From Oligoflexia bacterium (lineage in GTDB: Bacteria > Bdellovibrionota > UBA1018): a stretch of DNA of 64,000 nt. Location of the stretch: the NCBI GenBank assembly GCA_963758495.1, contig CAVWVI010000003.1, positions 736,001 to 800,000 of the forward strand. Reading direction: 5' to 3'. Below are positions 4,822 through 52,799 of the stretch, one piece after another (within the stretch, counting starts at the first letter, position 1; the number at the start of each line of letters is the position of its first letter). The notes beneath the pieces were generated by a model. The model was given only the letters and a program-made list of their open reading frames with translations. It was not told the origin of the DNA and made no database searches. The position numbers and the translations under genes are program-made.

Positions 4822-4922
4822 AAAAGCAGTTCCTTTGGGGCTGGTGACAAGCGCTGTAAGGAGTCCTGTTACGCCGTAAAGATTTGGATTCCCGGCGTAA
4901 CAGGACTCCTTACAGTGCTTAC
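4822..4922 (+). mobile_element. MITE-like element, copy 1 (~101 bp, long internal hairpin)
   Basis: Starts aaaagcagttcctttgg, ends cttac; 28-bp stem aagcgctgtaaggagtcctgttacgccg/cggcgtaacaggactccttacagtgctt; flanks ccctaac/ctctaac (6/7 match). Confidence 0.8.
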
Positions 4923-4945: not shown

Positions 4946-4979
4946 CTTAGTTAAGGTTAGTCAGCTAACCTTAACTAAG
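4946..4979. repeat. Perfect 15-bp inverted repeat with a 4-nt loop
   Basis: cttagttaaggttag-tcag-ctaaccttaactaag. Confidence 0.85.
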
Positions 4980-5697
4980 GATAATCTAAGTTAGGCTTAT
5001 TCACCTTAAACCCCCCTGCTCCATTCGCTGCACAAGCGCCTTGCGCGGCTTCCCGCTTGATATTCACCCAAGGCAACGCGCCTACTCTTGACTTCGCAGT
5101 ATTTCCATAGCGAAATGCCTCGTATTTCATGACACAAAAACTTTTTCCCGCTGTCGGTGTTGAGTATGCCTCATTACCGGGCACCGAAATGTAGCCTTCA
5201 GGACATTCTACATTCGATCCCATTGCAGGCATCTGTCCCAGTTGTTGGCCCGCTTGCGCCATTTTGCTACGGGGTTTTCTTTTTAAAGTTTTGCAAATAT
5301 ATTCTTCAGCTTTAGGGAGACCCATGTCTTCACAAATCCTCAGGGTATTTTCAGCGTCAGCAGTATTTTTAAAGGAGACTTCGCCATATCTAAGAAAAGG
5401 TAAAACATACTTTTTCATAAGCTTTCCGTTTACATCGATTTTATGACATAATTCTTCAGCTCCATCTTCTTTCCCCTCTTCAGACAAAAGGTTACAAATC
5501 GCCGCTAACTTCCCATCCGCATCTATGTGGTAATCCAAATTATCTGGGTCACACCAAAACTTTTCCCCATCTGCAGTTTCGAAATAAACCTTCTCTCCAG
5601 CTATTACGTGGGAAAGGTGAACGAGCATGCCACTCATCACGAATGTGCTCAGCACCGACCCATACAAAACTTTATTTTTTAATTTGAATAATCTCAT
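4975..5697 (-). pseudogene. 3'-truncated paralog of the BTB-CLec gene at 7987-9216
   Basis: Collinear with 7987-9216 up to ..ACAANGAG, then an unrelated tail; most of the CLec domain is lost. Confidence 0.8.
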
Positions 5698-5768
5698 AAA
5701 TCACTTTTCTTTCTTTTATTTTCTAATTTTTTCCAAACTCAATTGATCTTGCAATAACGTGTTCAGTT

Positions 5769-6863
5769 TTAAAAATGAGGATCTCGTAATGGCTTATACC
5801 TCATTTTATCGCGCACATGGCCATGTCCACTTGGGGAGCCCTTATTCCAATCCCAATCATTGTGGCAGCGACTACAAGTCATCGCATTACATCCATCAGA
5901 CCGTTCCGTAATCACTCCACAGTGATAACAGGGTCGAAATCTACCTCGGAGATCATCGTTTGAAAGTCTAATTGCTGGAGGCTCCTCGGCACCCAAACGA
6001 AGGAGGTTTTCAAACTCTTTCATTTGTTGTGCATATTGAGAACATGCGCCCTGATGCTCATTTCCGCATCGGATGCATCCTTCCTGCTCGCATAAAAAGC
6101 ACGAGTAAAATGCAGATTTTTCCTGAGGTTGAACGATCCTTCCTCCAGCACAGCCTGCGGTAGGGCAAACTACCCAGCCCATTTGTCGAGCATTCACTCG
6201 ATCCACAATTCTCATTCTGACTTTTTCGACCTAAAATTTTGATCGCCCCTGCTGAGCTAGATACCCAGTGTGGAGAACATTTTTACACCCAGGGCATTGA
6301 TTGAGATCTTCACCATCTCGGTTGACCACCATATCGCAATATCCGGGAGCACAATCTTGACAGAGATAACATGTACAGCCAGCGGGACCGGGCTGTGAGT
6401 GATCTTGATCTATTTGTTCGTCAAAACAAGAGAGACATTGGTTTGTATTTACGGGCTCGATGGGAGCAGATGGAGCATTTGCAGTAGCAATTTCAGCAAA
6501 AGCTAATAATGGAGCTGTCTCGCTGACCTCTGATTGAGAAAATTCTGACGACTTTATCGATGATGTTACCACCGAGAACTTCTGCTGCTGAATTTCCTTT
6601 TCACGTTCATGATAGTAGAATTCCTTGGCCTTCAGATTCATCAGCTTCTTGAGCTGCTTAACATGAGTGATTAAATCCGAATTTTCGTTCTCAATTCGCT
6701 CCCCTTCAAACGAAATCGCGCACTCAGATTTAAGACTCAAAACCTCGCTTAATTTTGATGTAGCCTGACAAAAGCCCAGTTGGGTATCTCCGAATACAAT
6801 TAGGCCCGAGACTACTGATAAGACTAGAATAAATTTTCTTGCTTTCATACTGGACCAGATCAA
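5769..6863 (-). pseudogene. Secreted RBR E3-ligase-like paralog without ankyrins, split by one in-frame TAG at 6231-6233
   Basis: ORFs 6231-6863 and 5769-6215 are in frame (..GRSKF*VEKVRMRIVDR..) and align to 9315-11771 (..GRSGADVEKVRMRIVDR..). Confidence 0.85.
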
Positions 6864-7000: not shown

Positions 7001-7291
7001 ATGATCACCGTTGTGGAGCTGAGTGAGTTTCTCAATAAACAAATTAAAAAACGTCAAATCCCAGATTTCATTTTGATCAAGCTTCAAGACTGGGTTGAAG
7101 ATGTTGAGAATCGTGGGCTTGAAAGAGTTCGACAAATTCCAGGTTACCATGATGAACCTCTAAAGGGAAAATTGGCTGGTACGAGGTCGATCCGACTTGG
7201 GAAAGGATGGCGAGCTTACTATCAAATTAGAGAGTTCAAACGAATTACAGTTTGGGTGGAAAGGATTGATAAACATGAATATGGTAAATAG
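7001..7291 (+). CDS. RelE/HigB-like toxin
   Basis: 96 aa with PGYHDEPLKGKLAGTRSIRL, upstream of an HTH antitoxin. Confidence 0.8.
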   Translation: MITVVELSEFLNKQIKKRQIPDFILIKLQDWVEDVENRGLERVRQIPGYHDEPLKGKLAGTRSIRLGKGWRAYYQIREFKRITVWVERIDKHEYGK

Positions 7292-7595
7292 AAAAAAAAG
7301 CAAGGCACTCCAAAACTTAGAGGCAGCAACAGGCGGACCAGTAACACTGGGGAAGCTGATTGAAGCAATTCGCTTGGGAGAAGAAAAAACACAGCCTGAA
7401 TTTGCAAAAATTCTTGGGATCTCAAAGTCTCATCTCAATGACATTGAGAAGGGAAGAAAAGTGGTTAGCCCTGACCGTGCAGCACGATTTGCGAGGGCCC
7501 TGGGGTATTCTGAAGAACGCTTTGTTACTCTTTCACTTCAAGGGATAATAGACCACGCAGGTTTAGCTTTCCGCGTAGAATTGAGGTTTGCTTAG
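7275..7595 (+). CDS. HigA-like XRE HTH antitoxin
   Basis: TQPEFAKILGISKSHLNDIEKGRKVVSPDRAARFARALG; start overlaps the toxin 3' end. Confidence 0.85.
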   Translation: MNMVNRKKSKALQNLEAATGGPVTLGKLIEAIRLGEEKTQPEFAKILGISKSHLNDIEKGRKVVSPDRAARFARALGYSEERFVTLSLQGIIDHAGLAFRVELRFA

Positions 7596-7986: not shown

Positions 7987-9216
7987 CTAGTTCTGAGGGC
8001 TAAAAGCACACCGAAACCCGACAACCGCGTACGAGCCAGAGGCGGAATAGTTCAGAAACGCAGCGAAGACTCCAGCGTTCGTGTCAGCGGACCAGGAACC
8101 ACCCCGCAAGGCGGCCCCGGCATTATACATGTAGATTTTACCCACATTCTGTGTTGAGCTGTATGAACCGAGTGGGGCAAAAAGGAATTTATTCTGACTC
8201 CCCTCTGAGAAATAGGTAGCGTTGTTATATTCCTGCCATATATTCTGTCCTGTTCTTAGATCATCCGATACCCATTCCGATACGTTCCCTGCCATATCCC
8301 AAATCACTTCTCCATTGCTCAATGCGTGCGTCCTTTTATGAGTCCAGTCACTGTGATTAGTCCCAACGTAGGGATTCTCATCTGTGCCCGGAGCTGCGGC
8401 TGCATTTGAATTACTGTTGCCCCGCGATAATTGTCCCGCCCCTACTGCTCCACTACTCCAGTTTGCCGGGGTAGCCTCAATACCTCTTGCAATCGTCATC
8501 CACTCGTCATTCGTGATCAAATGGTATCCTGCTCCATTCGCTGCACAAGCTGCTTGCGCGGCTTCCCGAGCAATATTCACCCACGGCAACGCCCCTACTC
8601 TTGACTTCGCAGTGTATCCTTCGCGAGATGCCTCATACTTCATGACACAAAAACTTGTTCCCGCTGTCGGTGTTGAGTACGTTTCATTACCGGGCACCGA
8701 AATGTAGCCCTCAGGACATTCTACATCCGAACCTATTTTGACGGGTACCTGTCCCAGTTGTTGGCCCGCTTGCGCCATTTTGCTACGAGGTTTCCTTTTT
8801 AAAAGTTTGCAAATATATTCCTCGGCTAAAGGCAATCCCAGATCTTCGCAGATGGTTAATGTATCTTCCCGATCCGCATCATTTTTGAAATTCACTTTTC
8901 CATGTCTAAGGAAGTTCAAAATATATCTCTTGGTAAGTTCTCCATTGACATCCAGCTCGAAAGCGGTCTCTTCAGACTTTCCATCATGAATTTCAGACTC
9001 CGCCATCAGATTGCAAATTCCAGACAACTTCCCATCTGGATCCATGTGATATTCCAAATTATCTGGGTCACACCAAAACTTTTCTCCGTCTGCTGTTTTG
9101 AAGTAAACCTTCTCTCCAGCCATCACTTGAGAAGGTTGAACGACCATCCCACTGATCACGAATGTGCTCAGTGCCAACCCATACAAAACTTTATTTCTTA
9201 ATTCGAATAATTTCAT
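7987..9216 (-). CDS. Secreted BTB/POZ-like + FGE-sulfatase (CLec-fold) protein, putative DGR target
   Basis: Signal peptide (..QVMA|GE); ELDVNGELTKRYILNFLRHGKV resembles KCTD-type BTB; FCVMKYEA, LITNDEW, IWDMAGNVSEWV and RGGSW..VGFRC are FGE/CLec motifs. Confidence 0.8.
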   Translation of the reverse strand: MKLFELRNKVLYGLALSTFVISGMVVQPSQVMAGEKVYFKTADGEKFWCDPDNLEYHMDPDGKLSGICNLMAESEIHDGKSEETAFELDVNGELTKRYILNFLRHGKVNFKNDADREDTLTICEDLGLPLAEEYICKLLKRKPRSKMAQAGQQLGQVPVKIGSDVECPEGYISVPGNETYSTPTAGTSFCVMKYEASREGYTAKSRVGALPWVNIAREAAQAACAANGAGYHLITNDEWMTIARGIEATPANWSSGAVGAGQLSRGNSNSNAAAAPGTDENPYVGTNHSDWTHKRTHALSNGEVIWDMAGNVSEWVSDDLRTGQNIWQEYNNATYFSEGSQNKFLFAPLGSYSSTQNVGKIYMYNAGAALRGGSWSADTNAGVFAAFLNYSASGSYAVVGFRCAFSPQN

Positions 9217-9314: not shown

Positions 9315-11771
9315 CTAAAAATGAGGATCTCGCAAGGGTTTGTACCTCATTTTGTCGCGCACATGGCCATGTCCACTTGGGGAGCCCTTATTCCAATCCC
9401 AATCATTGTGGCAGCGACTACAAGTCATCGCATTACATCCATCAGACCGTTCCGTAATCACTCCACAGTGATAACAGGGTCGAAATCTACCTCGGAGATC
9501 ATCGTTTGAAAGTTTAATTACTGGAGGTGCCTCAGCTCCCAACTTTAGAAGCTTTTCAAACTCTTTCATTTGTTCTGCATACTGAGAACATGCGCCCTGA
9601 TGCTCATTTCCGCATCGGATGCATCCTTCCTGCTCGCATAAAAAGCACGAGTAAAATGCAGATTTTTCCTGAGGTTGAACGATCCTTCCTCCAGCACAGC
9701 CTGCGGTAGGGCAAACTACCCAGCCCATTTGTTGAGCATTCACTCGATCCACAATTCTCATTCTCACTTTTTCCACATCAGCTCCTGATCGACCCTGCTG
9801 AGCTAGATACTCTGTATGGAGGATATTCTTACATCCTGGACATTGATTGAGATCTTCTCCGTCTCGGTTGACCACCATATCGCAATATCCGGTAGCACAA
9901 TCTTGACAGAGATAACATGAACAGCCAGCGGGACCCGGCTGTGAGTGATCTTGATCCATTCGTTCGTCAAAGCAAGAGAGACATTGGTTTGTATTTACGG
10001 GCTCGATGGGAGCAGATGGAGCATTTGCAGTAGCAATTTCAGCAGAAGCTAATACTGGAGCTGTCTCGCTGACCTCTGATCGAGGAGCCTCGATCTTGCC
10101 TATAAAGTGCTGCCAGGCTCTTTTCAATCCATATTCTCGACCCTGACTTGAAGAGGAAGCTTCTGTAGATTGAGAAGATTCTGACGATCTTATCGATGGT
10201 GTTGCTACTGGGAGTCTCTGCTCCTGGATTTCCTTCTCACGTTCCTGATAGTAGAATTCCTTGGCCTTCAGATTCATCAGCTTCTTAAGCTGCTTAATAG
10301 GAGCGATTAGATCCGAATTTTCGTTCTCAATTCGCTCCCCTTCAAACGAAATCGCGCACTCAGATTTTAGGTTCAAGATCTCGCTCAATTTGGATGCAGT
10401 TTGAGTGGATGAAAACAATTGCACCCACTTCTCAATCTGAGAACTCCAGCCTTGTCTGGCAACCAGCTCTAGAATTGCTCTGAGTTCGGAAGTTCCAAAA
10501 TACTGTTCCTCTCCCTTTTCTAAAATCAACTGAGCTATTTTAAGATTTCGTGCTTTGCTAGCCCATACCAGTGCCGGGAGACCCTCTTTACCGGGAAATT
10601 TCAAGTCACAATCATCCCTGGTAATGAATGCTGCACCAGATAGGGAAATAGAATCCAAAATAAATTTTATGATCTCTGTTTTCCCTTTTTCGGAAGCCAG
10701 AGTCAGAGGAGTATGGCCACTTGAGTGAGAGAGTAACTTCGGACAAAGTTGCGCCCCCCTGCTTGCTGCGAGCTTCACCATTTCTAGATTTCCTCGCTCA
10801 ATAGCAGACATCAATATCGGTTCGAGAGGTCCTAAATCCGCTCCATGATCTAGCGAAACTGAAATCACGTCCGATCGGTCATTCTCCACAGCCCATTTCA
10901 GAAGTGTGCGACCTTGAAGCCTCTCGTAATCTTTTTGATTCGAGTACGCGCTCTTATTTAGCGGAAAAACTTGGTTCGGATTCACTCCGCGCTCTAAAAG
11001 AATTTTGATAATCTCAAACTGAGAGGATGCGGCTGCCTGAACTAAAGGCGTTCTCCCTCGGCCATCAGGCTGATTCACTAATGCCTGTTCATTGAACTGG
11101 TTTTTTCCAAGAACTCCCTTCAAAGAAAGAAGATATTTGGCTAGATGAACTGAATTTGTTTCGATCGCCCAAGTCAGGATAGAACGATCATGAAAACGAT
11201 CATACTGCTTTGAATCCACATAGGCATTGGAGTCTGCAGGAAACAAAGAATCAGGACGAGCGCCATTTTCTAAACTCAATTTTAAAAATTTGAATTGTTC
11301 CTGCTCTGTTCTAGCAGATACGAGCGATTGCATGAGGGCTGTCCAACCCATGCTGTCCTGATGGTTCATCACCGCTCCTCGCGAAAGCAAAGTCCGCATC
11401 AGTTCAAGTTGACCCTTCTGTGTCGCAGAAAGGAGCGCGGTTCTCCCTTGGTGATCAGCTAAATTGATATCTGCGCCTCTGTCCAAAAGGGATTGCAGAA
11501 CGTCTAATCCGGTCCCAGACTCAATTGCCAAAATCAAGGCAGTCTTTCCATCCTGGTCCGTTTCGTTAACGAATTGGCGAGTGTTCTGATTTTTTTGTTC
11601 TAAGGACGCGAGAAGCTGAATCGCCAAGCTCCGATTTTTGCCCTTAATAGCTACGTGCAGATCATTAAAATTACCTGGAGCATCTCCCTGGCAATAGCCC
11701 AGTTGGGTATCTTCGAATGCAACTAGGCCCGTTATTACTGATAAGACTAGAATAAATTTCCTTGGTTCCAT
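9315..11771 (-). CDS. Secreted ankyrin-repeat + RING1-IBR-RING2 (RBR) E3-ligase-like protein
   Basis: Signal-like N-terminus; ankyrins (GKTALILA, GRTALLSA, GRTPLVQA, GHTPLTLA); RING1 CLSC..CSCYLCQDC..CPGC; IBR WVVCPTAGC..CFLC..CIRC..HQGAC; RING2 RPCYHC..ERSDGCNAMTCSRC. Confidence 0.85.
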   Translation of the reverse strand: MEPRKFILVLSVITGLVAFEDTQLGYCQGDAPGNFNDLHVAIKGKNRSLAIQLLASLEQKNQNTRQFVNETDQDGKTALILAIESGTGLDVLQSLLDRGADINLADHQGRTALLSATQKGQLELMRTLLSRGAVMNHQDSMGWTALMQSLVSARTEQEQFKFLKLSLENGARPDSLFPADSNAYVDSKQYDRFHDRSILTWAIETNSVHLAKYLLSLKGVLGKNQFNEQALVNQPDGRGRTPLVQAAASSQFEIIKILLERGVNPNQVFPLNKSAYSNQKDYERLQGRTLLKWAVENDRSDVISVSLDHGADLGPLEPILMSAIERGNLEMVKLAASRGAQLCPKLLSHSSGHTPLTLASEKGKTEIIKFILDSISLSGAAFITRDDCDLKFPGKEGLPALVWASKARNLKIAQLILEKGEEQYFGTSELRAILELVARQGWSSQIEKWVQLFSSTQTASKLSEILNLKSECAISFEGERIENENSDLIAPIKQLKKLMNLKAKEFYYQEREKEIQEQRLPVATPSIRSSESSQSTEASSSSQGREYGLKRAWQHFIGKIEAPRSEVSETAPVLASAEIATANAPSAPIEPVNTNQCLSCFDERMDQDHSQPGPAGCSCYLCQDCATGYCDMVVNRDGEDLNQCPGCKNILHTEYLAQQGRSGADVEKVRMRIVDRVNAQQMGWVVCPTAGCAGGRIVQPQEKSAFYSCFLCEQEGCIRCGNEHQGACSQYAEQMKEFEKLLKLGAEAPPVIKLSNDDLRGRFRPCYHCGVITERSDGCNAMTCSRCHNDWDWNKGSPSGHGHVRDKMRYKPLRDPHF

Positions 11772-11917: not shown

Positions 11918-12346
11918 ATGAGACTCGGAGATTGGGCTGAAAAACAAGGAATTACTTACATGACGGCATGGAGATGGTTCAAGCAGGGCAAAATGCCTGT
12001 GAAGACCATCCAAACGCCCAGTGGTATGATTTTAGTCGAACAAGAGAATGAAGCAGGGACGACGTCTCAACATAAATCAACAGCCATTTATGCACGCGTG
12101 AGCTCTCATGATCAAAAGAAAGATTTAGATGGCCAAGTGGCAAGATTGTCTATGTATGCGGCAAACCACGGACTCGTCGTCACCCAGGTTTTGACTGAGA
12201 TCGGCTCTGGTCTTAATGGAAAACGAAAAAAACTCCTCAGCACACTGGCAGATCAGTCTATCGACGTCATTTTGGTAGAGCACAAAGATCGATTAACGAG
12301 ATTCGGGTTTGAATATATTGAGACCTTACTAGAGATCTCAGTCTAG
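11918..12346 (+). mobile_element. IS607-family serine transposase TnpA, truncated; no tnpB follows
   Basis: N-terminal HTH (WAEKQGITYMTAWRWF), YARVSSHDQK, EIGSGLN, EHKDRLTRFG; premature stop removes the C-terminal helices. Confidence 0.85.
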
Positions 12347-28790: not shown

Positions 28791-30167
28791 CTATTGGCCT
28801 TGAGTTTGGGTTTGTCCTTGGGGTTGTCCTTGAATCTGTAATGACTGCTGTACTTGATTCATAATACTTTGAGTTTGTTGAATTTGTGCATTTTTCTGTT
28901 GCTGCTGTTGTTGCTGCTGTTGTGCTGCGGCTTGTTGCGCATTCTGTATCATTTGCTGGTTCTGTTGTTCTGTTGCCTGTTGATTTTGGGTGTTTTGCTG
29001 CATCTGATCCTGCATCTGTTGCATCATCATCATTTGATTATTCATTCCCATCCCGCCACCCATCATTCCCATTCCACCACCCATCATTCCCATTCCGCCA
29101 CCCATCATTCCCATTCCACTACCCATCATTCCCATTCCGCTACCCATCATTCCCATTCCGCCCATTCCGCCCATTCCGCCCATCAAATTAAAATTACTCT
29201 GGGGATGATTAGTTTGAGAATTCTGAGGATCATCAGCAGAAGAATCTTCCTGTTCTCGACTACTTCCTCTCCCTCCCACAACCTCCACTTGTGGATCTTC
29301 ACTTACTGAATTTGCATTTTGATTATTAGATAGAGATTGAGAACTAACTTGCAAATTACCTTTTAAATTACCTTTTAAATTAGATGAAGAATAAGAACCT
29401 GTGGCCTCTTCGACTTTTGACTCAGACACTCCGGCTCCAGGCGTTTGCGGCACTCCGCTTGAAACAACGGAAGGTACGGCAGGAGATCCTAAAGACTTTG
29501 ATCCTAATTGAGAACTGGATTGACTCGCCATTTTGGAATCATTTTGCTGAGGAGTAGGTTGCATTCCCGTAAGTTGCTGAGATTGAATAGAATTACGCTT
29601 TTGTAGATTCTGTTGTGGTCTATTCTGTTGTGACCGTGCGATGGGAGCGCGTGCCTGTTGTGCGTTTATTTTTTGGACGGCTTCCTTATTTTCTTCTTGA
29701 GCAGCTTCGTAATCACTCTGCTTCTTTTCCTTACTTTGAATAATTTGATCTTGTTGAGCCTTCTCCCTTGCAGCCTGTTGAGCTTTTAGCTGAGCTGCCT
29801 TTGATTTAGCCTCTGCATTCAATTGAATCTGTCGATCGTTCTGTGCCTTCAGCTTTTCTTGCTGCGCTGTTGCTATTGCTTTTGCCTTATCTTGAGCTGC
29901 CTGCAGCTGTTTCTGCTTTGCCGCTTGTTGCTGTTTAAGTTGATTCGCTCGCTCTGCTTCCTGTCGCCGTTTTGCTGCTTGTTGCTGTGCACGCTTTTGA
30001 TTCAGGCGTCTTTCTTGTTGAATTTGCCTACTTCGCTCCCTCGCTTGCTGTTGTTGCATCATTTTTTCTTCTGATGCTATTTCCTCTGCCATGTTATTAT
30101 CCGCCCACGCAGTAGGAATGCTTTGAATGACGAGTAAACAAATCAACAATATTTGATACATATTCAT
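28791..30167 (-). CDS. Secreted low-complexity Q-rich and G/M-rich protein
   Basis: Signal peptide (..AWA|D), Q/A/K coiled coil, (GMMGGGM)n, poly-Q tail. Confidence 0.75.
   Translation of the reverse strand: MNMYQILLICLLVIQSIPTAWADNNMAEEIASEEKMMQQQQARERSRQIQQERRLNQKRAQQQAAKRRQEAERANQLKQQQAAKQKQLQAAQDKAKAIATAQQEKLKAQNDRQIQLNAEAKSKAAQLKAQQAAREKAQQDQIIQSKEKKQSDYEAAQEENKEAVQKINAQQARAPIARSQQNRPQQNLQKRNSIQSQQLTGMQPTPQQNDSKMASQSSSQLGSKSLGSPAVPSVVSSGVPQTPGAGVSESKVEEATGSYSSSNLKGNLKGNLQVSSQSLSNNQNANSVSEDPQVEVVGGRGSSREQEDSSADDPQNSQTNHPQSNFNLMGGMGGMGGMGMMGSGMGMMGSGMGMMGGGMGMMGGGMGMMGGGMGMNNQMMMMQQMQDQMQQNTQNQQATEQQNQQMIQNAQQAAAQQQQQQQQQKNAQIQQTQSIMNQVQQSLQIQGQPQGQTQTQGQ
29044..29183 (-). repeat. 21-bp and 9-bp tandem repeats encoding a G/M-rich tract
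   Basis: About 5 copies of cccatcattcccattcc(g/a)c(c/t)a plus (cccattccg)n. Confidence 0.9.
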
Positions 30168-30218
30168 TCGCCCCTTAAAATTAAATCATCACTTCTCAAC
30201 AGTTACTGACAGTTTTCT

Positions 30219-30325
30219 GTAAACAGTTCCTTTATGGCTATTGATAAGCGCTGTAAGGAGAGAGTTCTGTTGTGCCGTAAAGTCTCTTGGATTCCCGACG
30301 CAACAGGACTCCTTACAGTGCTTAC
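30219..30325 (+). mobile_element. MITE-like element, copy 2
   Basis: gtaaacagttcctttatggc...cttac with the same hairpin; flanks gttttct/gttttcc. Confidence 0.8.
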
Positions 30326-30331
30326 GTTTTC

Positions 30332-31384
30332 CTATTGTGATGATCCTCCTGGTTGCTGTGGCTGCTGCTGTTGTGGTTGCTGCTGCAGTTGTTGCTGCAG
30401 TTGCTGTGCAGCCTGGAGATTTTGGCTAGTTTGAGCAGCCTGCGCAGCTGCTGCCGCTTGTTGACTTTGTTGAAATGTTGCCTGAGACTGAGAGGAATTT
30501 TGAGAATTTGTCTGCTGTTGCTGCTGAATGTTCTGGCCTGCTTGTCCCATTTGCTGAACAACATTTTGTAAATTCATCATATTCATCTGAGATTGATTCA
30601 CCTGGGACTGACCGTTAGACCCAGATATAGAACTGCTACGTGTATTCACTCGCTCAACAGAGTCCTCTTCCTGCCTGGTTACAGATACTTGCTGGGACAT
30701 AGACGGCTGTCTAGTTACAGAAGCAGGCTGATTCATAGTATTATATGAAGTAGCACTATTTGAACTAGCACTATTTGAAAACCTGTTAGCTTGACCCACC
30801 TGCTTTATTGTAGGTGGATTTTTAAATTGGCTAATGTCTCCGCCATTATAAGTATGCTGAGCTTGAATCGCATTACCAGAATTAGTTCCATAAGTACTTG
30901 TATTCCTTGCTTTACCTTCAACGTCTGAATGCTGGGAACCATAAAGTGATTTCTGATGCGACTCAATTTGACTTGCCTTTGCCTTAATAGAGTTACTATT
31001 GGCATTGATTTTTTGACGTAAGTCTACATGGTCGCTGAGTAATTTTCGAAACTGTTTTCCGTCTGTTTTATTTTGCTTACTTAATTTTTGCATTTGAGCT
31101 TCTTTATTTTTAAGCGCCTTAGTTGCTTGTAAATTCTGAGTCTGCATTTTCTTTATAGCAGCTTGATGACTATCAATTTTAGCATTATGATATTTTTTAG
31201 CAAGATACCCTGGCCCATTAAAGGTCGGCTGGGTAGTATTTCCAGAAATCGGAGCATTAGTATCGCAAAATCCACTTTTCTGAAAAACAACGTTCATCAA
31301 AAATAAAATAAAAATTATACCAAACTTCTGGATAAAATTATTTTGTACTTTAGTATTTGAAAATACCCAACTCAAAATACCCAT
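30332..31384 (-). CDS. Secreted or anchored Q/N/S-rich low-complexity protein
   Basis: N-terminal hydrophobic segment, coiled coil, poly-Q C-terminus. Confidence 0.72.
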   Translation of the reverse strand: MGILSWVFSNTKVQNNFIQKFGIIFILFLMNVVFQKSGFCDTNAPISGNTTQPTFNGPGYLAKKYHNAKIDSHQAAIKKMQTQNLQATKALKNKEAQMQKLSKQNKTDGKQFRKLLSDHVDLRQKINANSNSIKAKASQIESHQKSLYGSQHSDVEGKARNTSTYGTNSGNAIQAQHTYNGGDISQFKNPPTIKQVGQANRFSNSASSNSATSYNTMNQPASVTRQPSMSQQVSVTRQEEDSVERVNTRSSSISGSNGQSQVNQSQMNMMNLQNVVQQMGQAGQNIQQQQQTNSQNSSQSQATFQQSQQAAAAAQAAQTSQNLQAAQQLQQQLQQQPQQQQPQQPGGSSQ

Positions 31385-33409: not shown

Positions 33410-35517
33410 TTATTTATTCTCTTTTGCTTTTTTCTCTTGGTGTTTCTTAATCATTTCTTCTTGAACGTTTCTAGGTACAGGTGAGTACTTCAGGAATTCC
33501 ATCGTAAACTCTCCTTTACCCTGTGTTGCAGACCTTAAATCCGTCGAGTAGCCAAACATTTCACTCAATGGAACTTCAGTCTCAATCACAGCATAACCTT
33601 CGTTCGTTGTACTATTCACAATCACACCACGACGTTGATTAATTTGCCCCATGACGGATCCCTGGAACTCTTCAGGTGCCTGAGTCTCCAACTTCATAAT
33701 GGGCTCAAGAACTGTGGCACCTGCTTTTTCATAGGCTTCACGGAAGCCCATCAAAGCAGCTGTTTTAAATGCTTGCTCTGAAGAGTCCACATCATGACTC
33801 GCTCCATCGTTGATCACTGCACGAACTCCAACGATTGGGAAACCAATAAGACGACCTTCCTTGATTGCCTCCTGGAAACCTTTATCACAAGCAGGAATAA
33901 ATTCACGAGGAATAGATCCGCCTGTAATATCATCGACAAATTCGTAGGTTACAGCAGCATCTGCAGGAAGCGGCTCAATAAATCCAACCACTTTACCAAA
34001 CTGACCTGATCCACCGGTTTGCTTCTTATGAGTGTAATTGAAATCGCCACGCTTGGTGATGGTTTCTCGGAAAGCCACCTGTGGCTTACCTACAATCACT
34101 TCACAATTGTATTCACGCTTAATGCGTTCACAGTAAATTTCTAGATGAAGCTCACCCATTCCGCTAATGATTGTCTGACCGGATTCCTCATCCCGATGAA
34201 CACGTAAAGTAGGATCTTCCTTAGTAAACTTATTCAGAGCCTTTGAGAAATTAGCTTGGCCCGCTTTATCCTTAGGTGCAATCGCAAGTGAAATAACGGC
34301 ATTAGGAATAAACATGGAAGTCATCGTGTACTTAATTTTACCATCTGTAAAAGTATCGCCCGATGCGCAATCCACACCAAACATAGCAACAATGTCTCCA
34401 GCTTGGGCTTCTTCAACGTCGTTCATTTCATCCGCATGCATTTGAGCGAGGCGAGGCACTTTAACTTTCTTATCGTTAGAAGAATTATAGATGACGTCGC
34501 CCTTCTTCACTGTGCCTTGATAAATTCGCATATAAGTCAACTGACCATAGCGACCTTCGTCCAATTTAAATGCCAATCCAACAAATGGAGCAGTTGGATC
34601 AGAACTTAGAACTATTTTAGCTTCGCTATTGCGTTGATCGAGAGCAATATTTTCCTTTTCAGGAGGGCTTGGTAAATAATAGGTGACTGCATCCAAGAGA
34701 AGCTGAACACCTTTGTTCTTGTAAGCAGAGCCGGTCATCACTGGAGTAAAATTCAAGACTGAGTGTCGCTTTACGAATGGCGAGACGAAGCTCATCCACT
34801 GTAATGTCTTGTCCTTCTAAATACTTGTTACCCACCAACCTCATCAAACTCACCGACTGCTGCAATGAGATCTTCTCGATACTTTTTGACATTCGCTCTG
34901 CAATATCTTCTGGAATATTCTCTTCGCGAATCTTCTCACCATTGTCGCCATCAAAATAAAAGGCTCGCATCGTGACTAAATCCACGATCACCCTTAAATT
35001 GATCTTCAGCACCAATAGGGTAGGTAATCAAGTGCGCGTTATGATTTAATTTTTCTCGGAGCATTTTCACGCCACGGAAAGGATTTGCACCTGCGCGGTC
35101 CATCTTATTAACGAAACAGATACGAGGCACTTTATAGCGCTTCATCTGACGATCGACTGTAATAGACTGAGACTGTACGCCTGCTACAGAGCAAAGGACA
35201 AGGACAGCTCCATCTAACACTCGAAGAGATCGCTCTACTTCAATTGTAAAATCTACGTGGCCGGGAGTATCAATTAAGTTAACATTGTAGTCTTTCCACT
35301 CACAATAAGTGGCAGCAGACTGAATCGTGATGCCCTTTTCGCGCTCAAGATCCATAAAGTCCATCGTAGCACCTACGCCCGATTTACCCTTAACTTCCTC
35401 TATCTTATGGATTCTCTTAGTATAAAACAGAACACGTTCGGATAGCGTGGTCTTACCTGAGTCAATGTGGGCAGAAATACCGATATTACGGACCTTATCA
35501 ATCGAAATACGAGCCAT
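33410..35517 (-). CDS. fusA: Elongation factor G, split by several clustered single-base indels (~34750-34995)
   Basis: [49 protein letters not shown] spread across three ORFs. Confidence 0.93.
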
Positions 35518-45743: not shown

Positions 45744-46727
45744 CTACATTGGATTGAGACCGTGGTTATCCTCTAACTTAATAAGTCTCTTTTTCAAAAT
45801 CTCACGCTGCTTCACTCTTGGATCAACGGTACAGGAATGCGCTTCAGGTCTGTAGTGCTTCTCGCAGAATTCACCGCCACATCCGCATTTGTCCATCAAA
45901 AGATGCTTCTTACACTTTGGAAAACTGCATTTTTGGGAAAAAAACTGATTACTTGAATCGTGAACCGATTGAGAACCTGCATTCACAAAAGCCGTTGAAT
46001 GGGCAACCTCTTCATTTGTCTTTGGAGCTGCTTGTGCAGCTGTCTTTCTAGCTATCTGTGCAGCTACTTCATTTAACTGAAGCAAATACTCTAAATTTAA
46101 ATCACTATCATTTTCGTGATCACCTTCGATTTTTTCGAGCATCTTTTCAGGGTTAAAATCCGTTTCTAATTTTGTATCAATCACTTTTTCAGCTATTGAT
46201 TTTCTTATTTCAAATGAAATTCCAAGCTCATCGTTTCTTAAGCTTTTTTCAACGTCTGACAATAACTCACTAATCATGACAGTAACGTCAGTATTAAACA
46301 TTTGAACATAAGCAATTACTTTGTCTTTTTGCTCGCAAGCCTCTAAGGAGGCCTCGATCAAATCAGCACGTGCCTTTGAAAAATCATAATCCAATGCAAT
46401 CTGCTCTCGTGTAAACTCATCTTCTGAAGCGTTTAAGCGTTTACGCTGCATACTCAGAAGTAGCTGCTCTCGATTCCTATTTTCTTTTAAATGATCATCC
46501 AGAGTCTCATACTCTGAAGGACAGTATTTTTTCATGACTAGATTATGGAACCTTTTAAGCATGATAGCGAAATTCTTACTCAAGTTAAATTGAGCTGCCG
46601 TCATAAAATCATCCGCTTCATCCGCCCACGTCGTGCGAATGGTCTCGTAACCGCACAACGAAAATAAAAGTAGACCGATGAAAAAACTCGAAAAAGATTT
46701 TCCTTTTAAAACAGACTGAAATTTCAT
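45744..46727 (-). CDS. Secreted helical protein with a C-terminal AN1-type zinc finger
   Basis: Signal peptide (..TWA|D); CSFPKCKKHLLMDKCGCGGEFCEKHYRPEAHSC. Confidence 0.8.
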   Translation of the reverse strand: MKFQSVLKGKSFSSFFIGLLLFSLCGYETIRTTWADEADDFMTAAQFNLSKNFAIMLKRFHNLVMKKYCPSEYETLDDHLKENRNREQLLLSMQRKRLNASEDEFTREQIALDYDFSKARADLIEASLEACEQKDKVIAYVQMFNTDVTVMISELLSDVEKSLRNDELGISFEIRKSIAEKVIDTKLETDFNPEKMLEKIEGDHENDSDLNLEYLLQLNEVAAQIARKTAAQAAPKTNEEVAHSTAFVNAGSQSVHDSSNQFFSQKCSFPKCKKHLLMDKCGCGGEFCEKHYRPEAHSCTVDPRVKQREILKKRLIKLEDNHGLNPM

Positions 46728-51920: not shown

Positions 51921-52799
51921 ATGAAGAGATATCATGCGATCACATTAGGAATAATTTTAGTGAACTTCTCTACAATACTTGCTTCTAATGTGGTTTCGGC
52001 TGCACCAGAAAATAATTTTGAAATTCAAGGCATGCGTGTGCAGATCTCTGGTCCTGGGGCCACTGAAAATGAGGTTCGAAATGTGCGGGATCGAGTGAAG
52101 GGTCCCTGGCTGAATCATCTACTTGAAGACAAGCATAGAATGAATCAGATTGATGCTACTAGTCAGGCTGAAATTTGTCCTATCTGTTTAGACGAGATAC
52201 AGGGCAAGGATCTGATGTTGACTCCGTGTAATCATGTGTTTTGCAGCCCCTGTATTACCCAGGCTCTCGATAATCAACAGAAGTGCCCGGCATGTCGTCG
52301 AGAGCTTGTAAATTCCAAGGAACTCCAACCTTTCAGGTACACTCCTGGTGAGGAAGTGGAATTGGCACTTGAGATTAATATTCCTAATTTCGACGACCTA
52401 CTCACTCCTGAGTTTGCGGCACTTGGAGTCATGTACGAGGTGGAAGGCTTGATGTGGAGTGGGGTTGCAAAACGGCAAGGTTTTTGGAGAAGGCTTCTAC
52501 GCGAGAGTATCTGGACAATGAATTACGAGGATGCAACACGGTTTTGTCGAGATTTGGGAAGAGGAGCAAGATTGCCCACTCGGGAAGAGTATAGAGCTTT
52601 GAAAAGAGTGCTGGGGGGTCAAAATCGTTATAATCCTCGCATAATCTCAGATATGGTGGGCAATGGCTTTTGGTCGTCTTCAGTCGACCCCGACTTTCCT
52701 TCCAACTACGCCTATGAATTCAATGGCAGTACTGGTGTCAGTGGCAGCTTTGGCATGAGTCGTAAGCGTGCCGTCCGGTGCATATTGCCAGCGCGTTGA
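51921..52799 (+). CDS. Secreted C3HC4 RING + DUF1566-like CLec protein, putative DGR target
   Basis: GAGGAG RBS; signal peptide; CPICLD..PCNHVFCSPC..CPACR; GLMW..A..FC..RLPTREE..FWSSS..AVRC. Confidence 0.82.
   Translation: MKRYHAITLGIILVNFSTILASNVVSAAPENNFEIQGMRVQISGPGATENEVRNVRDRVKGPWLNHLLEDKHRMNQIDATSQAEICPICLDEIQGKDLMLTPCNHVFCSPCITQALDNQQKCPACRRELVNSKELQPFRYTPGEEVELALEINIPNFDDLLTPEFAALGVMYEVEGLMWSGVAKRQGFWRRLLRESIWTMNYEDATRFCRDLGRGARLPTREEYRALKRVLGGQNRYNPRIISDMVGNGFWSSSVDPDFPSNYAYEFNGSTGVSGSFGMSRKRAVRCILPAR

Follow-up and report, generated by a model that had tools for sequence, protein, structure and literature searches.

A RING1-IBR-RING2 ligase module behind ankyrin repeats in a gene of a Bdellovibrionota-related bacterium

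Can a bacterium encode a complete ubiquitin ligase of the RING1-IBR-RING2 (RBR) type, and if so, what would it do with one? To our knowledge, RBR ligases, which form the third main E3 class, are treated as eukaryotic, and we found no description of a bacterial RBR in the literature, including among the listed bacterial E3 families. The question is raised by a gene in the window, by which we mean the whole 64,000-nucleotide stretch of DNA analyzed here. An earlier note, made from the sequence alone, had proposed that this gene joins a full RBR module to ankyrin repeats, and our analysis confirmed that 9315..11771 encodes the full module. The gene (ANK-RBR) and its parts are as follows.

9315..11771, minus strand: ANK-RBR gene, 818 amino acids, ATG start (open reading frame list, Pfam)
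11688..11771, minus strand: signal-peptide-like N-terminus, about residues 1-28, with a presumed cleavage site (hydrophobicity heuristic, peak 2.69)
10416..11669, minus strand: ankyrin-repeat region, about residues 35-452, presumed to bind substrate (Pfam Ank_2; approximate boundaries)
9831..9983, minus strand: RING1, residues 597-647, with eight Cys ligands, presumed to bind E2 (superposes on the RING1 of HOIP and HOIL-1)
9588..9713, minus strand: IBR, residues 687-728, C6HC (Pfam IBR)
9537..9590, minus strand: helix between IBR and RING2 with hydrophobic L741/L742 (helix 139-156 of the model)
9411..9476, minus strand: first zinc site of RING2 (Rcat), with Cys779 at the catalytic position (codon 9435-9437; aligned to Parkin and ARIH2)
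9318..9410, minus strand: family-specific tail in place of the second RING2 zinc site (D792, H803, Y810, P812, H817; conservation, model)

The three zinc modules occur in canonical order within one chain, as the earlier note had claimed, and their ligands could be placed residue by residue. Conservation was counted over 64 close-relative modules or, for N-termini, over 54 full-length close relatives. RING1 is all-Cys, with Cys in the usual His position, and its ligands (C597/C600/C617/C619/C622/C625/C644/C647) are conserved in 56-64 of the 64 relatives; those of the IBR (C687/C692/C709/C712/C717/C720/H724/C728), which has two zinc sites and lacks a catalytic Cys, are each kept in 59-64. The ankyrin repeats in the same gene matched Pfam strongly (Ank_2, E 6e-46, 6 stretches). 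The Pfam IBR model (PF01485) matched residues 678-726 with an E-value of 0.0012 and 19.4 bits, below the curated cut-off of 24.3 bits, and IBR_1/IBR_2 matches at 764-793 also fell under the Pfam cut-off; the Pfam IBR score reaches 33-35 bits in three paralog ORFs. A family profile matched HOIL-1 (E 7.6e-15), ARIH2 (8.6e-15), and Parkin (8.7e-11), which is beyond chance.

Comparison of folds gave the same answer. The model of the RBR module is confident (pLDDT 93.8), and Foldseek returned 52 matches at E<=0.001; the 41 among the matches listed are all RBR ligase entries, with HOIL-1, Parkin, ARIH1/2, HOIP, and RNF216 among the names. By structure alignment, RING1 corresponds to HOIP RING1 (Z 6.3, rmsd 3.2, 83 residues) and RING2 to HOIL-1 RING2 (Z 4.5, rmsd 2.8, 64 residues). 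The 10 ESM Atlas clusters listed are all 100% eukaryotic, eight of them with IBR and one with RNF216-type families. Sequence, profile, and fold thus all speak for the module being an RBR. In trees, the query fell into a group lacking the canonical second zinc site and comprising 100 of the 143 rows, with aLRT values of 59-85; because this support is weak and most rows carry no taxonomy, the donor cannot be named.

The quoted RING2 string, RPCYHCGVITERSDGCNAMTCSRC, is present in the sequence, and the first-site ligands of RING2 are C766/C769/C784/C787. C779 is not a zinc ligand, yet it is kept in 63 of the 64 close modules and aligns with the catalytic Cys of Parkin and ARIH2, which bears out the claim that this residue is retained. 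The neighboring His is Ala, also as claimed (A781, the Cys+2 position), and only 8 of the 64 relatives have His there. The further claim that the last zinc ligands are lost holds for the cysteines: WDWNK replaces F-C-W-x-C, no Cys follows C787, and the canonical second site is absent. It does not hold in the sense of a mere loss, in that the 31 residues between C787 and the end of the chain form instead a conserved, well-predicted His/Asp tail (pLDDT 93-97) with the family-wide pattern W-H/D-W-N-x-G..HD..P-H-aromatic. We did not count the missing second site as defining, because the cited part of PMC9834252 treats the C-terminal half of RING2 as variable. Together, the remodelled tail and the absent Cys+2 His may be read as recalling the C-terminal His of HOIL-1. 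Absence of the Cys+2 His was linked to the HD motif in a simple count (Fisher p 0.0007), an association that was unsupported after correction for the tree (2 independent pairs). In the helix before RING2, the L741/L742 positions are hydrophobic in 97-100% of the 64 relatives; hydrophobic helix residues of HOIL-1 and RNF216 contact the donor ubiquitin (PMC9834252, in the part cited), and by analogy L741/L742 are a putative contact of this kind.

Regarding function, we think it probable that this eukaryote-type E3 is an exported effector with which a Bdellovibrionota-related bacterium acts on or in a eukaryotic cell. Indirect support comes from the hydrophobic N-terminus, a type II secretion cluster, the absence of ubiquitin and E2 matches, and the presence of other mimics. 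By a crude hydrophobicity heuristic, signal-like N-termini occur in 38 of the 54 full-length close relatives and, in the source genome (G000), in 18 of 29 RING/RBR/BTB proteins versus 569 of 2179 other ORFs. The gsp cluster includes GspC/D/E/F/N above NCBIfam cut-offs. Ubiquitin had no match in this genome, which is 92% complete, or beside any RBR locus, and E2 likewise had none in either place, in a search whose control was silent. Other mimics of the ubiquitin system comprise USP, F-box-CLec, zf-AN1, and RING-Lcl proteins, and the genome has 34 ankyrin ORFs and 17 RING ORFs. The several putatively export-tagged RBR copies of this uncultured bacterium suggest a life on or within a eukaryotic host whose protein disposal it redirects.

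The protein would be exported by Sec via its signal peptide and then released by type II secretion. RING1 would bind a host E2~ubiquitin and Cys779 would take the ubiquitin as a thioester, while the ankyrins, presumably the substrate-binding part, would hold a host protein. A tail His (H803 and/or H817) may take the place of the absent Cys+2 His or of the zinc site that was lost, much like the C-terminal His of HOIL-1. No Ariadne or RING0 cap is seen, so the usual auto-inhibition may be missing. ANK-RBR would then be one member of a modular arsenal in which RBR, RING, BTB, or F-box domains are joined to ankyrins or CLec domains. Several features count against the exported-E3 reading: Cys-rich zinc domains are known to pass an oxidising periplasm with difficulty, the RING1 E2-contact position is Ser (S599; I/V in 41 of the 64 relatives), the Cys+2 His is absent, and the Pfam IBR match lies below its cut-off. 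Searches of the source genome for injection systems found none (VipB 0, VirB4 0, FlhA flagellar), and one for an ATP/ADP translocase, whose control was silent, gave no match. At 3.66 Mb and with flagellar and pilus genes, this genome is not that of a reduced endosymbiont, and the reading offers no account of how the protein would reach the host cytosol.

The peculiarities of RING2 could mark a decoy or weak enzyme, which we regard as unlikely; it would dampen host ubiquitin signalling, by holding on to host E2~ubiquitin or by trapping the thioester, without transfer to a substrate. Such an enzyme would fit the rarity of the Cys+2 His (8/64) and the loss of the canonical second zinc site, and HOIL-1 deprived of its catalytic His keeps a stable thioester (PMC9834252, in the part cited). 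However, fusion to varied binding modules suits substrate modification, the conserved, His-rich tail is ordered, and active RBRs do not universally carry a Cys+2 His, according to the same part of PMC9834252.

A co-oriented BTB-CLec gene had been placed about 100 bp away, and it indeed starts 98 bp downstream of ANK-RBR.

7987..9216, minus strand: downstream gene with a signal-like N-terminus, a KCTD-type BTB domain (8797-9117), and an FGE-sulfatase/CLec domain (7990-8724)

The CLec domain is evident from Pfam (PF03781, E 4.8e-10). The BTB domain is undetected by sequence searches and seen by fold comparison alone: in a model with pLDDT 74.7, it matches the BTB domains of KCTD5/9/15/17 (Foldseek prob 1.0, TM 0.60-0.65, E 4e-6 to 2e-5), so the BTB label was right. 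Some KCTDs do not bind CUL3. In the exported-effector reading, this neighbor most likely mimics a Cullin-3 adaptor, being co-expressed with the RBR but acting on its own.

The earlier note had gone further and suggested that the two proteins might work as a pair, in the manner of Ariadne RBRs and Cullin-RING ligases; the cited part of PMC3817463 describes Ariadne RBRs as bound and activated by neddylated cullins. Modelled on ARIH1, the two proteins would form one E3-E3 unit in which the BTB protein loads host Cullin-3 with a substrate to which the RBR adds ubiquitin, a proposal to which we give little credence. It draws on a KCTD-like BTB fold with a KCTD5/Cullin3 entry among the matches, a BTB dN/dS of 0.17, and an adjacency kept in the source genome (four loci plus a fused remnant), in G418 and G250, and in the metagenomic L049. 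Co-inheritance of the two genes spans three genera, 8 of 10 BTB matches immediately follow either an ANK-RBR gene or the first BTB gene behind one, and each of the 3 genomes among 75 with a BTB is also RBR-positive. Nevertheless, the paired RBRs belong to a single subclade, so the pairing represents one inherited cassette rather than repeated evidence. Most RBR genes have no BTB gene next to them: BTB is absent from 4 of the 7 RBR-positive genomes and from beside 3 of the 7 RBR loci in the source genome. The RBR has its own ankyrin binding module and no Ariadne domain, and HOIL-1 and ARIH2 receive equal profile scores, so it is no closer to ARIH than to HOIL-1. Pfam UBA gave no match at E<=1 in the ANK-RBR protein, which has a helical linker (453-520). 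Thus, co-inheritance within the subclade stands, and the case for an Ariadne-style pairing is weak.

It is far less probable that the protein serves the bacterium itself, in a prokaryotic ubiquitin-like system or as a zinc/thiol protein directed against bacterial prey. Preying on bacteria is a known habit of the phylum (PMC9944714, in the part cited), and the source genome carries flagellar, type IV pilus, and Tad pilus genes and, as stated, gave no match to an ATP/ADP translocase in a search whose control was silent. On the other hand, neither ubiquitin nor E2 was matched there or adjoining any RBR locus, signal peptides would keep the RBR apart from a cytoplasmic system, and the co-occurring F-box, BTB, and USP domains have eukaryotic partners.

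The exported-effector reading concerns a family of genes rather than a single one. The source genome has seven RBR modules across four large contigs, and the paralogs exchange ankyrins for CLec domains. The window itself holds remnants of a second pair.

5769..6863, minus strand: degenerate second RBR copy, ankyrins deleted, with an in-frame stop between RING1 and IBR
4975..5697, minus strand: truncated second BTB-CLec gene with a shortened CLec

A search with a full-length alignment (A4) scored 55 of 75 genomes of the family as positive; because ankyrins dominated the matches, it was replaced by a module-only profile (A6), which found RBR modules in 7 of the 75 and in 0 of 52 other genomes of the class. 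This profile drew in part on five of the seven positive genomes, which leaves only G410 and G338 as independent finds. The dN/dS was 0.12-0.19 for the four module pairs with computable dS (three pairs were saturated, and one BTB pair was discarded as out of frame), showing that the modules are under purifying selection. Promoter and terminator scans gave chance-level results. Viral contigs yielded 74 pattern matches, of which 0 were confirmed, and phages and plasmids yielded no match. That the gene is a contaminant from a eukaryote or giant virus, or a Cys-rich ORF arisen by chance, has next to no probability: the nearest large ESM Atlas clusters are eukaryotic and the assembly is of metagenome type with 2% contamination, but the gene is intron-free, lies on a 1.68 Mb contig amid bacterial housekeeping genes, has a GC3 of 0.41 against 0.37 +/- 0.05, and belongs to a set of seven modules on four contigs that is under selection and recurs in six further genomes of the family.

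The CLec partners add a possible source of variation.

7990..8094, minus strand: variable 3' end of CLec, showing mismatches that resemble those left by a diversity-generating retroelement (DGR) when set against a remnant copy located at another site of the contig

In the closest CLec pair, 13 of 14 mismatches fall at codon positions 1-2 and 12 involve A; in more distant pairs the pattern shows no excess over upstream sequence. No template repeat (TR) was found in the source assembly (14 CLec ends scanned; 92% complete), nor one for the BTB-CLec gene in the viral contigs. The assembly also lacks a DGR reverse transcriptase (RT), and of its five RT matches, the four viewed look like the group II intron type. 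The relatives G250 and G410 have a complete target-Avd-TR-RT cassette, and in a relative a DGR targets a catalytic-RING2/CLec gene, which, if true, is a route to fast-changing ligase specificity. We tentatively entertain, as possible though doubtful, a broader proposal: that a family-level lineage of Bdellovibrionota switched from bacterial to eukaryotic hosts or prey with a modular arsenal of exported E3s, including the first bacterial RBR family, active, un-capped, and using tail-His catalysis in a rebuilt RING2, together with CLec substrate receptors varied by DGR retrohoming, which would hypermutate ligase specificity. If true, the arsenal indicates a eukaryote-associated lifestyle in a phylum known for predation on bacteria.

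Among known RBRs, HOIL-1 (RBCK1) is the closest, being the top profile match and the top Foldseek match among those listed. The cited part of PMC9834252 describes a canonical N-terminal half of RING2, Trp at Cys+2, a rebuilt C-terminal half, and a C-terminal His (H510), all with counterparts here in a non-His Cys+2 and a terminal His. However, HOIL-1 has a Zn2/Cys6 cluster, whereas the bacterial family is Cys-free after C787 and has the W-H/D-W-N-x-G..HD..P-H tail; ANK-RBR also lacks UBL and NZF domains and has ankyrins and a signal-like N-terminus. ARIH1/HHARI, ARIH2/TRIAD1, and Parkin share the order of the three domains, the spacing of the zinc ligands, and the catalytic loop G-C-N/x; unlike them, ANK-RBR has an all-Cys RING1 and no Ariadne domain, RING0, Ubl, Cys+2 His, or second RING2 zinc site. 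If true, a bacterial, apparently un-capped RBR with a rebuilt RING2 is a natural test of which active-site parts are needed. Eukaryotic ANKIB1 also has ankyrins N-terminal to its RBR (PMC3940038, in the part cited), but it has two repeats, places the RBR centrally, and carries an Ariadne domain, in contrast to the long ankyrin array and C-terminal RBR of the bacterial protein, whose family swaps ankyrins for other domains. DGR target proteins with CLec domains (Lcl_C / FGE-sulfatase) have a similarly variable 3' CLec end; here, CLec is fused to E3-type domains, and the source assembly is without TR or DGR RT. Further bacterial mimics of the ubiquitin system include the Simkania RING ligase and HECT-like SopA, and the cited part of PMC13728172 (2026) puts the number of bacterial E3 families at seven or more, of which just one is similar to the RING ligases of eukaryotes. 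The nearest parallel to the arsenal as a whole is Babela massiliensis, for which the cited part of PMC4378268 describes signal-peptide ankyrins, F-box and RING proteins, C19 DUBs, and T2SS as the sole detected system; the arsenal described there mentions no RBR, the module that distinguishes the present family.

The ANK-RBR feature is real and conserved, and is probably best explained as an exported RING1-IBR-RING2 (RBR) E3 effector directed at a eukaryotic host. At its N-terminus a hydrophobic stretch precedes ankyrin repeats (Pfam Ank_2, E 6e-46), which a helical, Ser-rich linker separates from the C-terminal Cys-rich modules:

9315..11771, minus strand: ANK-RBR gene from the ORF list, 818 aa
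residues 597-647: RING1, Cys-rich module
residues 687-728: IBR, Cys-rich module
residues 766-787: RING2, Cys-rich module with C779 at the catalytic position

The complete RBR module described in the earlier note is borne out, with RING1, IBR and RING2 in order and with profile and fold matches to RBR ligases; the sequence also has the RING2 string that it quoted, with Ala in place of His and without the later cysteines. As a single sequence the protein gives weak matches to Parkin (E 4e-4) and HOIL-1 (E 8e-4), and a 15-sequence module profile matches HOIL-1 (7.6e-15), ARIH2 (8.6e-15) and Parkin (8.7e-11). The AlphaFold2 model of the module, built from a 67-row alignment, has a mean pLDDT of 93.8, high through the last residue, and a pTM of 0.73; among the Foldseek matches listed, of 52 at E<=0.001, 41/41 are RBR ligase entries. 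Against RBR ligases the whole chain gives low TM-scores (0.18-0.40) and a large rmsd, as would be expected of three modules joined by flexible linkers; its sub-domains, taken one by one, fit to about 3-4 A, with Z values of 4.5-7.4 that are middling by themselves. By domains, modeled fold and catalytic Cys, the protein appears to be built as an RBR, and ligase activity is predicted.

Conservation was counted in the 64 modules scoring >=85 bits, among 142 modules from 154 proteins. Zinc ligands are kept in 59-64 of the 64, except C619 (56), and C779, which is no zinc ligand, is kept in 63. His occupies the Cys+2 position in just eight; in place of the first Cys of the canonical second zinc site, 45 have His and 11 have Asp. 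The tail is conserved as well (W793 in 60, N794 in 57, G796 in 60, Y810 in 51, P812 in 50 and H817 in 41); among 69 modules with W-x-W-N-x-G, an HD motif, with whose His H803 of the ANK-RBR protein aligns, occurs in 39 and a terminal P/A-H-aromatic in 40. Judged from these alignments, the active site appears rebuilt, not decayed. In HOIL-1, according to PMC9834252, Cys+2 is Trp and transfer from the thioester needs the C-terminal H510; by analogy, the tail His of the bacterial RBRs may be a HOIL-1-like solution or part of a His/Asp zinc site. Cys+2 His and HD are anti-correlated in raw counts (HD in 1/11 vs 38/58, p 0.0007), a relation unconfirmed after tree correction, with two independent pairs on supported branches. 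In the IBR-RING2 helix, L741/L742 are hydrophobic in 97-100% of modules; HOIL-1 and RNF216 need hydrophobic residues in this helix to bind donor ubiquitin (PMC9834252). We consider it unlikely that the RBR is a decoy. S599 lies at the RING1 E2-contact position, where I/V is usual, and would count against full activity of the window's copy, although in RNF216 a small residue at that position is tolerated (PMC9834252). The rarity of the Cys+2 His suits a decoy, whereas the conserved, ordered tail and the lack of that His in HOIL-1, an active RBR, speak against one.

The neighboring gene lies 98 bp downstream, close to the 100 bp first estimated. Its C-terminus is FGE-sulfatase/CLec by Pfam, and its N-terminal domain, with no match in Pfam or sequence searches, folds like the BTB domains of KCTD5/9/15/17 (pLDDT 74.7; E 4e-6), in agreement with the BTB identity proposed for it. 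The cassette and its relatives are:

7987..9216, minus strand: KCTD-like BTB + CLec gene
4975-6863 of the window: degenerate cassette duplicate
865201-865716 of source-genome contig G000:C3: cassette remnant, RBR linker fused to CLec 3' end

The RBR-BTB cassette was copied as a unit, and co-expression of the two genes is plausible. The expected co-occurrence held in part: the neighbor-type BTB family is found in 3/75 family genomes, all three RBR-positive, and 8/10 BTB matches are directly behind an ANK-RBR gene or behind its first BTB gene, but the other RBR genes with flanks viewed, including five in two clusters of one relative (G025), have no BTB neighbor. Adjacency would suit direct pairing of the two proteins as an E3-E3 unit, which we nevertheless think doubtful, as the paired RBRs are all one subclade in the tree and the ANK-RBR protein lacks the Ariadne domain. 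Ariadne ligases are capped by that domain (PMC3940038) and activated by neddylated cullins (PMC3817463); for want of it, we rejected Ariadne membership.

Between the two RBR-BTB copies is a HigB/RelE-like + HTH toxin-antitoxin pair (7001-7595, plus strand). A short serine resolvase, presumably IS607-like, is divergent from the RBR gene (11918-12346, plus strand), with no TnpB-sized ORF after it. The second BTB-CLec truncation point has a perfect 15-bp AT-rich hairpin (4946-4979) and an inverted repeat nearby (4849-4919).

Iterative searches of the source genome yielded ORFs with ankyrin (34), RING (17), BTB (6) and two types of CLec domain (11 and 20), in mixed combinations. Other ubiquitin-related genes are:

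G000:C3:1170125-1171063: USP-type deubiquitinase domain, above cut-off
G000 C4:466022-467104 and C3:1533946-1535070: two F-box + FGE-CLec genes, signal peptide
window 45744-46727, minus strand: signal-like N-terminus, helical region and C-terminal zf-AN1, a eukaryote-type domain
window 51921-52799, plus strand: signal-like N-terminus, C3HC4 RING and Lcl CLec; paralogs on other contigs

By a crude hydrophobicity rule, 18/29 E3-like proteins have export-like N-termini vs 569/2179 other ORFs. The genome has four secretins: PilQ, two of Tad-like type and one that belongs to a gsp type II cluster. Its single FHIPEP protein is flagellar FlhA, and searches found neither VipB nor a VirB4 domain. An endogenous or anti-bacterial role is very improbable, as the genome gave no match to ubiquitin or to E2, the E2 search being silent on its control too. 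Elsewhere in the window are two low-complexity proteins rich in Gln/Ser/Gly-Met with signal-like N-termini (28791-31384, minus strand) and an EF-G seemingly split across two ORFs (33410-35517, minus strand).

Contamination can be dismissed: the contig that holds the window is 1.68 Mb long, with bacterial housekeeping genes around it, and RBR modules occur on 4/5 contigs of the source genome and, by a module-only profile, in 7/75 genomes of the family (5/48 genera). ANK-RBR is a bacterial gene and a member of a family. The source genome's seven RBR matches are four intact ANK-RBR genes, the window's broken copy and two RBR-CLec fusions; two RING1+RING2-type CLec genes without IBR, one split, come in addition. 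Such IBR-less RING1 + RING2-like modules fused to CLec are at G000:C3:187822-189318, G000:C2:116829-118407 and locus L115. Family loci duplicating already numbered ones were counted once. The module-only profile was negative in 52 other genomes of the class, and a narrower profile found 4/401 sampled phylum genomes, all in the same family. A representative protein library gave 917 matches at E<=0.001, of which 113 reach 1e-10 and 40 reach 1e-30. Most of 30 looked up had no taxonomy; P0046, a family member, is labeled as a Myxococcales MAG, and P0129, with ankyrin and a canonical RBR including RING2, has a locus tag that we interpret as possibly a Dependentiae bin. Given these matches, the range outside the Bdellovibrionota family is real, and further bacterial phyla may also have RBRs. 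Module dN/dS is 0.12-0.19 (four unsaturated pairs of seven).

Loci L022 and L023 (G025:C176, C219; genome 54% GC) hold three and two RBR genes in tandem, respectively, whose N-terminal domains are of other kinds. On a metagenomic contig (29% GC; L050:2381-3124), a signal-peptide LRR gene follows an ANK-RBR gene and has a stretch F-box-like by eye, Pfam F-box not being detected. P0088, P0089, P0092, P0094, P0108, P0115 and P0128 stand apart as a group that has parts of the rebuilt RING2 tail and whose members mostly lack signal peptides; they are possibly protist relatives or donors.

Past the junction, 14 positions separate the window's CLec 3' end from the remnant; 13 of them fall at codon positions 1-2, and an A takes part in 12. 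As more distant CLec pairs have no adenine excess and no template repeat (TR) for this gene was found in the source genome, it is not counted as an active target of a diversity-generating retroelement (DGR). Two RBR-positive relatives have complete target-Avd-TR-RT cassettes, at L117:1-3226 (G250:C26) and L101 (G410:C418). In G250, adenines make up 30% of the TR, and 14/17 TR/VR mismatches fall on them. The gene of its cis target, in which an Lcl-type CLec comes after a RING2-like catalytic module, runs off the contig end and is broken by a frameshift in the present assembly; RING1 + RING2-like + CLec make up a paralog that looks intact. This TR matches five other G250 CLec genes, including ANK-RING-CLec and F-box-like CLec, and in the source genome it best matches an RBR-CLec fusion (73% over 89 bases). 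Adenines account for 53-76% of the mismatch positions in the remote matching genes, a pattern that would fit descent from DGR targets, active today or not. The available text of one DGR survey (PMC11661182) mentions no RING or ankyrin targets.

In the literature searched, which included few subscription papers, bacterial RBRs are nowhere described, and passages on RBRs in PMC8003559, PMC11354881, PMC4327156 and PMC12591485 name none; supplementary domain tables of papers on Babela or on ubiquitin evolution may include bacterial IBR proteins. A 2026 paper (PMC13728172) puts the number of bacterial E3 families at seven or more, one alone like eukaryotic RING ligases. ANKIB1 is an architectural parallel only. 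Ankyrin-rich Bdellovibrionota MAGs are reported from sponges (PMC9944714). The amoeba parasite Babela massiliensis is described as having signal-peptide ankyrins, F-box, RING, C19 DUBs and type II secretion alone (PMC4378268). Unlike it, our source organism has a 3.66 Mb genome with flagellar genes and, on searching, no detected ATP/ADP translocase, which makes an obligate lifestyle and an attached or facultative one equally likely; the two are alike in their set of mimics and type II secretion system.
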